This document shows, in pieces, positions 13,055 to 64,000 of a stretch of DNA of 64,000 nt. The translations under genes and the position numbers were made by a program. Under the pieces are notes generated by a model, which did not search any database, was not told where the DNA came from, and worked only from the letters and a program-made list of their open reading frames with translations. Each line of letters starts with the position of its first letter. Within the stretch, counting starts at the first letter, position 1. Origin of the DNA: Octopus vulgaris. Its lineage: Eukaryota. The stretch lies in assembly GCA_951406725.2 (NCBI GenBank), contig OX597834.1, positions 5,208,001 to 5,272,000 on the forward strand. Direction: 5' to 3'.

Positions 13055-13250
13055 TTTATTATTGTGATTAACCATCCAATATGATGGTGCGGATTGCTGA
13101 TGTTTTCTTCAAGTTTTCCATGAAGATTGCTTTCGTTTAGTAATTCCATTACGATGTACACAGCAGATTTCTCCTGATTTTTCTTTAATAGCGATAGCAG
13201 CTGTGTATATGATGGTATTAACATTCCAGTTATTAACATCACATGCTATA
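13055..13250 (-). mobile_element. R4/Dong-like LINE ORF N-terminal fragment
   Basis: NVNTIIYTAAIAIKEKSGEI...KRKQSSWK, frameshift, LEENISNPHHHIGWL. Resembles the R4 pattern N-LIYAAA...P-W--RLE--I--LR--IG-L. Confidence 0.6.
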
Positions 13251-13251
13251 A

Positions 13252-13327
13252 GGTCACTTGAATGGTACTGGTAACATGGAATCCAGTACAACCTGAAGTA
13301 TGGTTGGGTCGTTAGTGACTGAATCAG
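13252..13327 (+). ncRNA. candidate HDV-like ribozyme, degenerate copy
   Basis: Homologous to 48495-48572. P1 GGTCA/TGGTT, P3 AC/GT, L3 with CC, GG, P4, C at 13319. P2 3' strand mutated. Confidence 0.45.
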
Positions 13328-13911
13328 TACTTCCACAAAGCTTGCCTGATGAGGAGGGTTACAAGAAAAATCAGCAGGACCAAAATCAAGACCTGTCAAA
13401 GAACGGATAAACCTAGTGTAGCTTCAATGGTTATCTAACCATAGCAAGGGTCCGCAAAAATTCTGGTTTGGTGGTACCCAGCGCGCTGGAAGACTACTGG
13501 GAGTGAGATGCTCCTTAGCGTTTGTTAACGATTTCGCTAGAACCCGTCTCAAATCCCGGTTACGTCTGCTCAGATAATCGGCAGTGACGAGGTCAACGAA
13601 TCGTCTGCGACGGTCGTCATTCAACGGCAAGACGAGGTGCTACGAATCGCACTATCCCAAAGTGTATAAGCATTTGATCGGGGACGACTTGTTTTCCCGC
13701 TAAAACCCCGAACTTGACCTCTACACCTCAACAGCGAATGACAACTACGGCAACGACTTCAGCGCTACAGCCTCGACTGCAGCCGACCGTCAGTATTCAT
13801 GAAGGACTTGGTAAAATCGTTGGTCGGACCCGACTTAACACAAACCAGATGGGTGCCGCCGCAAGTACAAGTAGATCCGAGCTGCTTGAGAATTCGAAAA
13901 TAGAAATTTAG
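13252..13911 (+). mobile_element. 5' region of a non-LTR retrotransposon (CpG-rich 5'UTR, possible ORF start)
   Basis: First ~160 nt align with 48495 onward. The remainder is CpG-rich with a short T/A/S-rich ORF at 13714-13911; its membership in the element is inferred from contiguity. Confidence 0.5.
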
Positions 13912-17639: not shown

Positions 17640-17785
17640 ACGGGAGCTTTTTGTACCAGTAGCCTTCTATCAGGTCTCTCCCAGGTGGTTTTCCATTCGT
17701 CAGTTTCATAATAATCGTCGGAAGTGTTTCACTGGTAAGAGACGTTTGCACAATAATCTCTTCATGCTTCGTTTAACCGTGCTGC
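17640..17785 (-). mobile_element. R4/Dong-like RT fragment
   Basis: [24 protein letters not shown] matches the pre-RT motif L-NWK-PG-D-I-GYW-KKL. Confidence 0.7.
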
Positions 17786-41275: not shown

Positions 41276-41836
41276 TTATTTATTCATTTATTTTTATTTT
41301 ATCTAGGTTCAGCTCACGAGCTGTGGCCATGCTGGGGCACCGCCATTTGGTGTTGCTACATGATTTTACTTCACGAATGCTTTTTAGCAATTGCCATTTG
41401 GTGCATGAGAGAGTTTGATGCAGCTGCACTCATCTGCACCTCCTGTCGTGAAGTTGGTTTATCTGGGATACCTGACAAGAAGAGATCCAGTTTCATTTTA
41501 AAGACATCTGCATCCACCCCATGCAGGTCTCTTAGGTTCTTCGGGAGGATATTGAAGAGCTGTGGGCCTCTGAAGCCCAGGCTATCACAGTATCTTGTCC
41601 TACATCTTGATGGCAAATTTGGAGCCCTTGGCAATATGCAGTGGCACCCAGTTCTAGTATTTGTGTAACTCTCGATGCCAAAGTTTGGGACAAGTCCTTC
41701 TAGGATCTTCCAGATGTATATTATGGCATATCTTTCTCGCCTACGTTCTAAGGAATAGAGTCTTAATCTCTTGAGTCTTTCCCAGTAGTTTATATGCTGC
41801 ACAGAGGCTATCTTCTTCGTGTAGCTTCGTTGGATC
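41276..41836 (-). mobile_element. CR1/L2-group LINE, 5'-truncated (ORF2 C-terminus plus 3' tail)
   Basis: Open ORF 41371-41802: YWERLKRLRLYSLERRRERYAIIYIWKIL...GPQLFNILP...FKMKLDLFLSGIPD; A-rich tail. Confidence 0.9.
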
Positions 41837-44010: not shown

Positions 44011-44348
44011 AGACAGAAACAAAGAGATGTAGGAGTTTTATGTAGTCCCTTGACCTTTGCAGGATGTAGACACATCCCTCTCAGCTGACAAGTTATCCTT
44101 TTAAAAAGTGGCAATATATGTATATATTACACATTAACCAGAAGCATGTTGTCCACTGATGTAATGTCTTTGATTATAGATCTGCTAAGTTAGAGCTGAC
44201 ACACTGTATTTCATGTCAATGTAGAATAAACTGTAAATATGTGATGTAACCATCCCAGTATCATTACTATCTTAGCAAATCCCGATGCATTTAACATGAA
44301 ATTTTTTGTCCTTCAAAGTCATCAGGGTTGACCCTCTTATTTTGACTA

Positions 44349-45835
44349 GCCACCAAGCAACTAAAAGCCTCGAAAGCATTTGGTCCCGACAACATTCCGG
44401 CTGTGATTTGGAAGGATGATAGATTTCACACACTTTTGCTTAACCTCTGCAACCACACACTTTCCACCTTTGTCGCTCCAAAGATTTGGCACCAATCTCA
44501 AATCATTCCAATACCCATAAAAGGCGATTTGTCCCTCGTCACCAACTACAGGGGCATATCTCTAATGTCAATTGCTGCAAAACTGTACAACAAACTGATC
44601 CTAAATCATCTTGTCCTTTTTGTTGAACCTTTGCTCCGAAAGAACCAAAATGGATTCAGACATGGGCGCTCAACGCTGAGTCAGATACTATGCCTGCGCA
44701 GACTTATTGAAGAATCAAAAGCATTTAATCGCGATCTTGCAATGGTATTTGTAGACTTTTCTAAAGCGTTCGATTCTGTAGATAGGTACAAGATGTTTGA
44801 AATCCTTAAGCTCTATGGGATACCAGACAAAATTATTTCTGCCATCAAGGTCCTCTACACAGATACGTCTTCAACCATCTTAACCCCTGATGGAGAAACA
44901 TCATCTTTCTCGATCGAGGCCGGAATACTGCAGGGAGACACACTCGCCCCATTTCTTTTCATCATTGTTGTTGATTATGTGCTACGTATGTCAGTTGATA
45001 CCATCTCTGGCAAGGGCTTTGAAATAAAACCAAGAAGAAGTTCCAGACACCCAGCTGAGTACTTGACAGACACTGACTTTGCTGACGACATCGCTCTTAT
45101 CAGTGATTCTCTCTCCAATGCCCAGTCTCTTTTACAATCTCTTGAACAAGCCTCAAATTGTGTAGGTCTTTACCTCAATGAGACCAAAACTGAATACATA
45201 AACAAGTGCCTGTCCAACAGTGATTGCATCATCCACACTCTCAACAGTGCACCTTTAAATATGGTTTCTGATTAAATATCTTAGGTCATACATATCATCA
45301 TCTGGAAAAGACTTTCTAACTAGAAAGGGTATGGCCTGGTCAGCCTGTAATGACATGCATAAGATCTGGTCATCAAATCTAAGTAGAGACTTCAAACTTG
45401 AAATATTCAAAGCCACAGTCGAACCAATCCTACTATATGGCTCAGAAACCTGGACGTTATCAAAGAAGCTTGAGAGGTGGTTGGATGGAACCTACACTCG
45501 CCTCCTTATGAGAGCTCAAAATCTCTCGTGGAGGCGCCATCCAACTAAAATGCAAATATATGGGAAATTACCACCTGTGTCATCTGTTGTGAAAGGTAGG
45601 AGAGTCCAGTTTGCTGGACATTGTTGTAGAGCTGAAAAAGAAGTAATTTCTACTCTTCTCCTCTGGAAGCCATCTACTCGCAACACCAGAGGGCGCACAC
45701 TTCTCCTACCCTGATGTAATCTCCAGGGATACAGGCATCCAGCAACAGGACCTCCGTAATGCTATGATGGACCGTGAAGTCTGGCGCAACATGGTAAATT
45801 CCATTGTCTCGACCACGGTCGAACAATGATGATGA
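44349..45835 (+). mobile_element. RTE-clade LINE, 5'-truncated, reverse transcriptase pseudogene
   Basis: ORF 44403-45275: NYRGISL, QNGFR, FVDFSKAFDSV, GILQGDTLAPFLF, FADD. ORF 45331-45714: LLYGSETW, FAGHC. (GAT)n tail; 8-bp TSD TTTGACTA at 44341-48 / 45836-43. Confidence 0.95.
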
Positions 45836-47852: not shown

Positions 47853-48494
47853 TAAGTTGTCCCTACATATTAACACTAATTATTGCATGGGCAAAAGATC
47901 TCATTTACAATAAACACCTTAACACTACCCATCAAAAAAAAATTTAGCAACAAAATCTTATGTGGACTCCACCCCACCCCCAGGGTCAGATGGATCCCAT
48001 GTGGGAACCACTTCTCTAGCTACACCATTGGGTAGGCTTTGGTGTGGGATAAACTTGACTACCAGGCCCTCATGTTCGTTTCGATTGGACCCTTAACCTC
48101 ATGATATCCCATAGATGGTCTGAAACCAAGGATTGTTGTTGATGTGGATATAAAGTTGTACTGCTTTCAGATTATTGTCTGTTGTTCTGGTTGTTTAATC
48201 CCAAACTGTGCCTATCTCACCTGTTTTATTTTCTCTCTCTCTAGGTACAATGGACCTAGCAGTTTCAGCAACAACACACAAGCTTCCTCATTGACCTTCC
48301 CTGCTGTAATGCTCTGCAAGTGTGATCATACTTACACATACTTATAAACACATGCGCGCGCACACACACACACACACACACATACAAGGGAGGTATATAT
48401 ATGTGTGTATGTAAGTATGTATGTATGTATGTATGTGTGTATGTATGTATGTATGTGTGTGTGCATGCATGCATGTATGTATGTATGTATGTCA

Positions 48495-48572
48495 GGTCAC
48501 TTTCGAGTGCCACTGGTAACATGTAACCCAGTACAACCTGTTGCATGGTCGGGTCGTTGGCGACTAAACCGG
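48495..48572 (+). ncRNA. candidate HDV-like self-cleaving ribozyme
   Basis: Nested double-pseudoknot order: P1 GGTCA (48495-99)/TGGTC (48546-50), P2 CCAGT (48528-32)/ACCGG (48568-72), L3 CC with GG (48551-52), P4 TCG-TTGG-CGA, C48564-TAA. P1 is short; P2 and P3 each have a mismatch. Confidence 0.55.
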
Positions 48573-49042
48573 CAACCCTACCAAGCTTGCTTGGTGAGGA
48601 GGGTGTTTATTGGACACCCCGCGGGATGAAAAACAAATCCCGTCAAAGGGCGGAGGAACTCTTGAGAGTCAACGGCCATCCAATAAATGTCTTAAGGATG
48701 TATCATGCGCGGGGACATAGAAATAATCGGACTGAATACCCGCTCGAGTGGTTAAACTATTGGAAGTGAAGGACTCCTAGCCTTTGTTAGGGCATCCTTC
48801 TAGGAGATGGTAACTCAGGTAACTGGGATAACTCCGACATAAAACCTGCGTCTCAGTGGTTACCGATAATGTTGACTTGTTCTTCTTTTTGGATTATGGC
48901 TGCCGTTGCTTAGTGAGTGGTATTGACTCAGTGCACAGCCTTTCCTCACTTTAAAAAAATCTTCTTGCACAGGCATTGCACGATAACAACATTGATTAAG
49001 CTTCGTGCAATGACCATACTCGATAATGAGGGGGCAGCCACC
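48495..49042 (+). mobile_element. non-coding retroelement derived from a LINE 5'UTR, in a (TATG)n tract
   Basis: CpG-rich block in CpG-poor surroundings; homologous to 13252 onward; carries GGGCATCCTTCTAGGAGATGGTAACTC, like RTE/R4 5'UTR motifs; no recognisable ORF. 3' end inferred. Confidence 0.6.
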
Positions 49043-49249
49043 ATGCATATGTGTGTTTGTGTGTGAGTCTTCCTTTGTGATGAACAGCAGGAAAGCCACC
49101 TACCCCCTCTCTCCTTAAAGCTACACCTTTCTACATATGTTGTATCTATGTATTTACAAAAGTATACATGCAGTGTCATATATGACAGCTTTATTAACAT
49201 TACCATCCCATTTACACCACTGTTCTCACCTTCACTGATATAAGTCAAC

Positions 49250-52089: not shown

Positions 52090-53306
52090 ATCATCATCAT
52101 CATCATCATCGTCGGCTAACGTCCGCTTTCCCTGCTGGCATGGGTTGGACGGTTTGACTGAGGGCTGGCAAACCAGAAGGCTGCACCAGCTCCAATCTGA
52201 TCTGGCAAAGTTTCTACAGCTGGATGCCCTTCCTAATGCCAACCACTCCGTGAGTGTAGTGGGTGCTTTTTATGTGCCACCGGCATGCAGGCCAGTCAGG
52301 CAGTACTGGTATCGACCATGTTCAGATGGTGCATTCTATGTGCCACTGGCACAAGTGCCAATCAGGCAGTACTGTTATCAGCCACAACAATGACTTCACT
52401 TACCTCAACAGGTCTTTGCAAGTGCAGTTTATTGCCCAATGTTTGAAAGGTGCACTTAAATGGGCTGATTATGCTGCACTGGCATAGGCCACAGTTACGG
52501 TCTCACTTGGCTTGCCGGGTTTTCTCAAGCACAGCATATCTCCAAAGGTCTCGGTCACTTGTCATAGCCTCAGTGAGGCCCAATGTTCGATGGTCGTGCT
52601 TCACCACCTCATCCCAGGTCTTCCTGGGTCTACCTCTTCCACAGGTTCCCTCTGCTGCTAGAGTGTGACATTTCTTCACACAGCTGTCCTCAACCATATA
52701 CAATGCATGACAATACCAGTGCAGTCATCTCTCTTGCACACCACATCTGATGCTTCTCATGTCCAGCTTTTCTCTCAAGGTACTTACACTCTGTCCTATA
52801 TGCACACTGACATTACACATCCATCAGAGCATACTAGCTTCATTCCTTGCAAGGTTAAGCATGTTCTCAGCTGTCACGGCCCAAGTTTCACTGCCATGTA
52901 GCATGGCTGTTCGTACACATGTGTCACACAGTCTACCTTTCACTCTGAGTAAGGAGCCCTTTGTCATCAGCAGAGGTAGGAGCTCTCTGAACTTTGCCCA
53001 GGCTATTCCTATTCTAGCAGCTACACCTTCAGAGCACCCTCCCCAACTACTGACTTGGTCACCTAGGTAATGGAAGCTATCAACTACTTCTAGTTTTTCT
53101 CCCTGGAATATGAGGGAAGATGTTTTCTGTACATTTTCAGTGTTTATTGCCCCTGAGCATTTGCCACACACAAAAACTATCTTCCCAGTTAGCCTTCCTT
53201 TGATATTGCTGCACATCTTAAGTGTTCATAGCTTACACCAGGTACATTTTATGGAGTTTCTACCAACGCCTTTTCTACAGATCGAGCAGGGCCATCTACC
53301 TGAAGG
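52090..53306 (-). mobile_element. RTE-clade LINE, 5'-truncated; parent of family D
   Basis: WPCSICRKGVG...CTWC...C...CGKC finger, VDSFHYLGD, AWAKFREL, MLHGSETW, GRGRPRKTW, DRDLWR; ~400-nt 3'UTR; (GAT)n tail. Confidence 0.92.
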
Positions 53307-63089: not shown

Positions 63090-64000
63090 AAATGCCTGGT
63101 ACCAAGAGTGATGCTCTATACAAACAGAATCTAAATTTGTTGTCTCAGCTTCCAGAACCTGGAAGGGTTGGCGAAAGCCATGTGGTGGACAATGAAAAAC
63201 CTTGCTGATGACAGTCAAGGCTGATCTGGAACCCAACCTAGGCCCCCTTATCTACGGCATTCGTGGCTGGAATAGGAAATGGTTGGAGATCACGCAGTCG
63301 TTAGCCTCAAATCGCCAGGCCTGGTCGGCGTTTGTGAGAGATGCAGCATTGAGGATGAATGAAGCCAGCTCAACCCACCCCGGGTAGGCACCCATATCTA
63401 TGGCATTCACCGCTGGAATAAGGAGTGGTTGGAGATCACACGGTCGTTAGCCTCAAATCACCAGGCCTGGTCGGTGTTTGTGAGAGATGCAGCATTGAGG
63501 ATGAATGAAGCCAGCTCAACCAACCCTGGGTGAATGCTGTCAAGTCAAGTCAAGTCAAGTCAGTTTTCCAGAACCTGAATGTTCATACAGATCAATTTAC
63601 TGTGTCGCTGATCAAGAACAGGCAACGCATTTCCCAGTGGAGTTCCTCAAATCACTTCAGCTACCAGGATTTCCCCCACACACTCTGATCATGAAAACAG
63701 GTGCTCCCATAATGCTATTAAGAATCCTTGATGCACCCAGACTCTGCAACGGAACAAGGTTGCACCCAGACTCTCCAGTGGAACAGCCATGCCCCATGTG
63801 TTGGAAGCAACAATAATTACAGGCAACATGATGGGTGAGAATGTCTTCATTCCAAAGATACCTCTCATCTCAAATTATCTCCCCTTCCAGTTCAAGAGAC
63901 TGCAGTTTCCTGTCAAACGTAGCTTTGCAATGTCTATCAACTAAGCATAAGATCAATCTCGAAAGATGGTGGACTTAACCTCCTTCGACCTTGCTTCTCA
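63090..64000 (+). pseudogene. Helitron Rep-Hel PIF1-family helicase C-terminal remnant (runs off the window)
   Basis: NLNLLSQLPEP|ECSYRS...FPVEFLKSL...PPH.L.MKTGAPIMLLRILD.PRLCNGTRL, then VLEATIITG...VFIPKIPL...FKRLQFPV..SFAMSIN*A*DQS; contains stops and frameshifts. Confidence 0.9.
63162..63565 (+). mobile_element. RTE-type LINE 3' end with tandem duplication and (CAAGT)n tail
   Basis: GWRKPCGGQ*KTLLMTVKADLE...LASNRQAWSAFVRDA; TSD TTCCAGAACCTG at 63150-61 / 63566-77. Confidence 0.88.

Follow-up and report, generated by a model that had tools for sequence, protein, structure and literature searches.

A predicted exonuclease-resistant RNA fold at the head of an internally deleted RTE-type retroposon in Octopus vulgaris

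A short repeat with no evident coding capacity lies directly behind a (TATG)n tract in the genome of Octopus vulgaris, and the question that this locus raises is how the RNA of such an element would obtain its 5' end. The stretch analyzed here, referred to as the window, is 64,000 nucleotides of contig OX597834.1 (positions 5,208,001 to 5,272,000, forward strand; assembly GCA_951406725.2). A first-pass annotation of the window had proposed that an HDV-like ribozyme heads the element, starting at G48495. Our analysis leads us to favor a different answer, at a probability of roughly 0.62, in which the element arose from an RTE-type LINE by internal deletion and its first 60 bases would fold into a knot that likely stops 5'-to-3' exonucleases, thereby setting and protecting the RNA's 5' end with neither a ribozyme nor a promoter of its own.

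An internally deleted LINE copy in microsatellite DNA

The interval 48490–49042 (plus strand) is one copy of a high-copy, young, non-autonomous retroposon of ≈550 bp, here termed family A. A whole-element search of the 2.8-Gb genome (query 48495–49042) returned 2689 first-look candidates, of which 40 were scored and 30 fetched; these 30 loci align nearly end to end with 94 to 96% identity (100% for the window copy). The mean divergence from consensus is 2.0% over 43 full family A copies, a sample skewed to query-like copies. When the 3' 144 nt were used as query, all 30 loci retrieved had one common 3' end and 13 of them were cut at varying 5' positions, while L068 harbors a 12-bp target duplication in a non-repeat flank. 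The common 3' end, the variable 5' cuts, and this duplication are marks of target-primed reverse transcription, with the element on the plus strand. A tRNA head was looked for in the element and none was found, and the only ORF within it is the last 15 codons of the parental ORF (see below). A solo LTR, considered because of the TG..CA ends, is ruled out by the 13 of 30 loci that are 5'-truncated with a fixed 3' end and by the existence of a LINE parent. In four contig sets from sequencing runs, the family is seen under four organism labels.

The parent is represented by L291, a 4.2-kb element flanked by (TATG)n tracts that carries a single broken ORF encoding an endonuclease, a reverse transcriptase (RT), and zinc fingers. 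Family A consists of the first 505 nt of L291 (94.9% identity) fused to its last 45 nt (100%). In the window, the 5' part spans 48490–48994 (plus strand; L291:151-677) and the 3' part spans 48996–49042 (plus strand; 100% over 45 nt to L291:4270-4314), the latter including the end of the parental ORF and presumably serving as the RT recognition site. A decayed (ATGT)n tail or target repeat follows at 49043–49065 (plus strand), and (ATGT)n is intact in most sister copies. The parent family gave 1892 first-look candidates, and 27 of 30 fetched copies retain this 3' end, behind which ATGT or AT repeats stand in most cases; L306 is a second autonomous copy. The protein relatives of the parent are single endonuclease-RT proteins of 1000 to 1200 residues, and the RTE clade is described as having a single endonuclease-RT ORF and a very short 3' UTR that ends in simple repeats (PMC2887409, PMC1291365). 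The architecture of the parent, as judged from its sequence, fits this clade. The labels RTE, BovB-like, and SR2-like are provisional ones, based on architecture and on motifs. The first-pass description of a discrete ≈550-bp, SINE-like, non-autonomous element is upheld by the end at 49042, the full-length sister copies with both ends in common, the lack of a tRNA head, and the parent L291, which shows derivation from a LINE by internal deletion; its statement that the element has no recognizable ORF also stands, save for the 15 parental codons.

The element thus belongs with the bipartite non-autonomous LINEs that PMC5786205 reviews. In common with the bipartite RTE LINEs (RTESINE, Bov-A type) described there and with R2 SIDEs (PMC6765202), it retains the 5' and extreme 3' ends of one LINE, lacks an ORF and a small-RNA head, and ends in a simple-repeat tail; it differs in that the 5' module it keeps is a predicted nuclease block in place of a ribozyme, and in its strong preference for (TATG)n or (TA)n tracts. 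Subfamily A2 (L152-L187, ≈670 nt) also arose from this parent by deletion, but its junction is a different one. The autonomous family R1 is 95 to 97% identical to family A over the first ≈201 nt and was rejected as the parent, given that only this segment is common and the tail differs. Family B is 97% identical to family A in nucleotides 1 to 60, the best-kept part, and 48 to 75% identical beyond nucleotide 120; an alignment of the two consensus sequences also delineates a chain of hairpins behind the head (48547–48690, plus strand) that is common to several RTE-type families and includes the formerly proposed P4 and C48564. L057 was considered as an autonomous family B copy and rejected, as it is a complete short copy adjoining an unrelated ORF, and an exclusion pattern on the 3' end returned deleted or truncated copies only. 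Long variants (L154:1030-1235 on the minus strand, L155, and L156) carry an AT-rich insert of ≈190 nt at the position equivalent to 48690/48691; the insert is bounded by GT..AG in L154, is exactly absent from family A, has an intact acceptor in one locus only, and is possibly a 5' UTR intron. Loci L143-L151, a second subfamily with an R1 body, have a different, C-rich 5' end that can be paired with a run of G close by. This end can be drawn in an HDV-like form, but a permissive HDV descriptor found no match there.

The (TATG)n tract at 48396–48487 (TRF span 48396–48492) is target DNA outside the element RNA. Since truncated copies also adjoin such tracts, the tract is to be assigned to the target and not to the element. 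Against a background of 4.5 to 4.8%, the upstream flank is repeat-like in 19 of 23 full family A copies taken in genome order. For the copies retrieved with the 3' query, the counts are 9 of 16 among full ones and 11 of 13 among truncated ones; for A2, they are 14 of 15 among full ones and 6 of 15 among truncated ones. These counts, well over background, agree with the earlier suggestion of microsatellite targeting and indicate that insertion strongly favors (TATG)n/(TA)n tracts. The likely cause would be base pairing between the RNA tail and the nicked target. The 5' truncation points gather at nucleotides 44 to 64 (7 of 27); we do not take this cluster as evidence because target microhomology explains it as well.

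The predicted fold of the head

Where the element begins bears directly on how its 5' end might be made. At least the sequence TGTCA upstream of G48495 is common to 29 of 30 full copies, family A copies begin at or upstream of T48490, and in family B, which does not reside in microsatellites, T, G, and T precede C48493 in 11, 10, and 12 of 13 rows (these rows include L107, a mis-assigned match). G48495 is thus not the first base of the element, as common sequence extends at least 5 nt further upstream; the base instead sits within a five-pair helix with 48536–48540. The diverged homologue at 13252, cited in the first-pass annotation as starting at the same G, is real (78% identity over 111 nt), and the coincident start is only apparent, its first bases being damaged. 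It is part of an older family B copy at 13245–13874 (plus strand; 39.3 bits on model R1, which was built from retroposon heads only) with a damaged head (13245–13305), an internal deletion, and an end composed of an RTE-type ORF tail and a CAAGTA repeat.

From an alignment to Rfam RF01415 and from pair counts, we predict that the head (48488–48550, plus strand) is a flavivirus-type exonuclease-resistant RNA (xrRNA) of subclass 1a, with a three-way junction, a U.A-U triple, and both pseudoknots. PK1 pairs 48490–48491 with 48534–48535; the triple is formed by T48492 with A48512-T48532; P1 (48493–48497/48536–48540), P2 (48498–48501/48506–48509), and P3 (48511–48516/48528–48533) surround the junction residue C48510; and PK2, the L3-S4 pseudoknot, pairs 48520–48523 with 48544–48547. 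The pair G48491-C48534 corresponds to G3:C44 of the Zika xrRNA, and T48492 with A48512-T48532 corresponds to its U4.A24:U42 triple; loss of G3:C44 or of the triple is reported to abolish resistance of the Zika xrRNA (PMC11929477). The window copy scores 70.2 bits on model R1, a value to be read with the near-identical copy in the training set in mind. It carries C48511 in place of the T of its relatives, which breaks the first P3 pair, a junction pair, and its knot is predicted to be weaker than that of intact copies.

The sole Rfam match on the head is RF01415 (flavivirus 3' UTR stem-loop IV), with 18.8 and 21.7 bits (E values of 0.97 and 0.2) for two copies; these scores are under the gathering score of 54.5, and L343 has no match. 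Three of five flavivirus loci retrieved from a viral collection (see below) score just 27 to 30 bits on the same model, and because these true flavivirus loci also fall short, the low score of the head is not disqualifying. Where the head differs from RF01415, the differences fall on bases that are paired. A search pattern drawn from the junction bases matched 1697 genome loci, versus one for the reversed control; the first 30 pattern loci comprised 20 family A and three A2 copies, and exclusion patterns yielded further families with different P2, P3, and loop sequences, several of which precede endonuclease ORFs. A pattern for the C-G form of the junction gave a single match, probably by chance.

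Natural variation among these heads follows the predicted pairs. Across 19 heads, 93.2% of cells are paired, with 34 double-changed cells, a result reached by none of 500 shuffles and by slid controls only to 27 to 45%; the 19 to 20 alignment rows used here and below were chosen by eye from >100 loci, one or a few per family. The percentages are 100% for P1, 91% for P2, 96.5% for P3, and 86.8% for PK2, and both-side changes are found in four of four PK2, three of six P3, and two of three P2 pairs. Because the search pattern fixes P1 and the junction, invariance there is by construction, and only P2, distal P3, and PK2, which lie outside the pattern, count as tests. PK2 takes the forms CATG/CATG, AATG/CATT, ACTG/CAGT, GCTG/CAGC, CCTG/CAGG, and CTATG/CATAG in different families, and it fails or shifts register in L364, L399, and L401 (≈3 of 19). 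The G3:C44 pair, the bases of the U4.A24-U42 triple, and the junction C occur in 19 of 19 rows, again by construction; all three are also present in families A, B, and R1, which were found before the pattern was used. The other PK1 pair can form in 12 of the 19 rows. At the position of the ring-closing A37:U51 pair, a U follows P1 in 13 of 19, and C is found there in L235 and L279 of the viral collection as well. In all 19 rows, U-A takes two of the junction pairs, one of them also in the viral contigs L228 and L230. Single-sequence folding of the head, a method blind to pseudoknots, was not significant (z of –0.5 to –1.9).

Related heads in retroelements, viruses, and metagenomes

The head precedes endonuclease-type ORFs in at least five families and has been swapped onto different RTE bodies. 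In family C (L298, L299, L203, L204, and L207), an A-like head at the 5' end is accompanied by a divergent head 400 to 840 nt downstream, and in family D (L206 and L209) several heads stand in tandem. These layouts recall the tandem xrRNAs of flaviviruses and suggest capture of heads at the 5' end.

The same pattern retrieved 79 loci from the viral collection, six of which pass the pairing rules, and five of these six are near the end of genomes of 10.7 to 11.1 kb and carry Rfam flavivirus elements. The eight best matches of model R1 (25 to 37 bits) are five flavivirus-like 3' UTR loci together with the contigs L228 and L230, whereas the best of the other 72 pattern-matched viral loci reaches 21.7 bits; among these matches is a further site in L242, which had escaped the pattern. 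The motifs in L228 (296-369) and L230 (298-374 and 645-701) are subclass 1a-like with the retroposon-type U-A P3 pair. Both are viral-collection contigs of 3.7 to 4.3 kb, below the length of a whole flavivirus genome, and the L228 motif directly follows the end of an ORF near the end of the contig.

Compared with the subclass 1a xrRNAs of RF01415, the retroposon heads share the order and spacing of P1, P2, and P3, the junction C, the triple bases, PK1, an L3-S4 pseudoknot three bases after P1, a variable P2, and tandem copies in some families; the retroposon RNA may likewise begin shortly 5' of the knot. The dimensions of subclass 1a, with a P1 of 5 bp, a P3 of 4 to 8 bp, and an L3-S4 pseudoknot of 3 to 8 bp, also hold for the heads. 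Conservation of the L3-S4 pseudoknot and of the junction C is reported for subclass 1a (PMC5760640), and mosquito-borne flavivirus xrRNAs are described as having C-G pairs only around the junction (PMC13161572), in contrast to the two U-A pairs of the retroposon heads. The flavivirus xrRNAs lie in a viral 3' UTR and protect a decay product, whereas the head studied here lies at the 5' end of chromosomal retroposons, where the RNA protected by its predicted resistance would be the transposition template.

A metagenome scan added 122 loci (L332-L453), including a repeat with 68 heads and several smaller groups. The 68-head cluster is a repeat of ≈240 nt that starts with the same head, ends in CAA repeats, and is probably another bipartite element; its PK2 strands are GCTG (50 copies) and CAGC (48 copies) in place of CATG/CATG. 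This repeat starts 4 nt before P1. GT precedes its first G in 19 of 68 copies (6% expected), with the next base random, and AG does so in 16 of 68, often running into a short duplication of the start of the head. This pattern is consistent with trimming to the knot and also with a start site there. In L378, the head stands before an endonuclease-type ORF.

How the 5' end may be set

A host read-through transcript opened upstream by decapping or cleavage would be digested by Xrn1 or Xrn2 to 5 to 6 nt before P1, where the enzyme would stop at the knot. The endonuclease-RT of the parent would bind the common 3' end, and base pairing of the (AUGU)n tail with a nicked (CATA)n target would prime reverse transcription. 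The knot would yield from its 3' side, as the xrRNAs of viruses yield to the viral polymerase. Viral xrRNAs are reported to resist from the 5' side and to open from the 3' side (PMC12397905), a property that would suit a template for reverse transcription. That the head resists exonucleases we consider quite likely, and that this resistance serves to fix where the element's RNA begins within read-through transcripts we favor, with less assurance. Xrn1 is reported to stop 5 to 6 nt before P1 (PMC5760640), and a stop two positions before PK1 is also described (PMC13161572). The extra bases before C48493 number five in L009, L172, and L190 and six in L016, L081, L084, L153, L170, and L173, and these copies would fit the Xrn1 stop site; overall the number, as read from DNA copies, ranges from 0 to 8, and most flanks are repeats in which the boundary is unreadable. 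The internal or tandem heads of families C and D, away from any 5' end, count against an explanation in which the head sets the 5' end. If the parent RNA is likewise uncapped, it would need cap-independent translation.

HDV-like ribozymes are reported for RTE elements, R2 elements, and R2 SIDEs (PMC6765202, PMC5786205), and an HDV-like fold cutting 5' of G48495 by means of C48564 can be drawn on this head; we nevertheless regard it as very improbable. With P3 as interpreted here, its pairs hold in 70.4% of cells over 20 related heads, a value reached by two of 500 shuffles, in part as two of the HDV pairs are PK2 pairs, and their covariation score is reached by 39 of 500, whereas on the same alignment the xrRNA fold pairs 90.7% of cells and is matched by none of 500. 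The five P1 pairs include two G.U and are paired in 74.7% of cells, and the drawing implies an L3 of 18 nt. In HDV-like ribozymes, L3 is short, about 8 nt. P1 is described in PMC3774820 as ≈7 bp, with its 3' strand directly after P3/L3. P2, P1.1, and P4 are paired in 69, 64, and 68% of cells (20 heads), one P4 pair is broken in families R1 and A2, and the column of the supposed catalytic base C48564 holds C in 13 of 20 rows. Copies also run upstream of the presumed cleavage site. The caveat, raised with the original proposal, that an ACTGG/CCAGT hairpin competes with P2 was well placed: that hairpin is the conserved one. Searches with the head of two copies found no Rfam ribozyme family at E values up to 10, and the permissive HDV descriptor, run without a positive control, found no match in four of five copies, the window copy included, and matched 19 of 100 shuffles. 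Other ribozymes fared no better. The twister of the Perere-3 type has the layout P1-L1-P2-P4-L4 with two pseudoknots (PMC8501958), of which P1, P2, or T1 could not be mapped by hand in family A or B, and Rfam gave no match; hammerhead, pistol, and hatchet layouts likewise gave no match, whether sought by eye or with Rfam.

Two further explanations retain the fold and change its use. In one, which we judge unlikely, the knot only stabilizes the RNA after decapping, and an internal Pol II promoter with its start at ≈48488 determines the 5' end. The 5' ends do vary by a few bases, the head is swapped among RTE bodies as promoters are, and the GT..AG insert of L154 points to Pol II transcription and splicing; such a start site would, however, have to coincide by chance with the Xrn1 stop position, and the two-base GT of the 68-copy repeat differs from the TAT of family A, so that carry-over of flanking bases from different source loci fits better than a conserved initiator. 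In the other, which we hold to be more doubtful still, the three-way junction is specific to retroposons, for example as a site bound by the RT protein or as an element acting in translation, and blocks no nuclease. The weaker U-A junction pairs, the AU-rich PK2, and the subthreshold Rfam scores speak for such a look-alike. The resistance-critical G3:C44 pair and triple bases in families A, B, and R1 speak against it, as does the recognition of viral xrRNAs by a model built from retroposon heads.

In the reading that we prefer, with the knot as an exonuclease stop, close parallels are the RTE and R2 elements headed by ribozymes (HDV-like, PMC3774820; twister at Perere-3, PMC8501958), where a structured RNA at the extreme 5' end would likewise release a LINE lacking a promoter from a longer transcript. 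Self-cleavage leaves a 5' hydroxyl, whereas an exonuclease stop would leave a 5' phosphate and a few flanking bases. We lean slightly toward the broader proposition that RTE-type LINEs of several animals, together with their short parasites, set their 5' ends by this route, a third one besides promoters and ribozymes, with a working subclass 1a xrRNA, a module common to flaviviruses and other small RNA viruses that has moved between viruses and chromosomal retroelements. According to a 2021 review, viruses were the only source of characterized xrRNAs, and whether they also occur in eukaryotic genomes is a question it raises (PMC8374639); the part of PMC12222951 that deals with an xrRNA cites it for use in prime editing only, and ribozyme-headed RTE elements are already described (PMC8501958, PMC6765202, PMC3774820). 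The titles and abstract openings that we surveyed report no xrRNA from a retrotransposon found in nature; either the family or the fold may already have a name in Repbase, in subscription journals, or in supplements. The head is a concrete, high-copy eukaryotic xrRNA candidate with natural covariation. If the proposition is true, promoter-less LINEs gain a new way of defining a 5' end, the swapping of heads among RTE families is explained, and the question arises whether the virus or the retroelement had the fold first.

The window harbors other repeats besides. A decayed fragment of a non-LTR RT lies at 44346–45714 (plus strand; RVT_1, E value of 4e-30), and LINE remnants are found at 17640–17772, 41371–41835, and 52824–53225 (all minus strand) and at 63239–63531, the last of which is made up of two tandem copies similar to the 3' end of the R1 body. 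The clades that we assign to these remnants are presumptive, coming from motifs. Two very abundant short repeats, of ≈185 and ≈420 bp, are each present in more than 10 copies in the window (e.g., 235–660 and 1013–1438).
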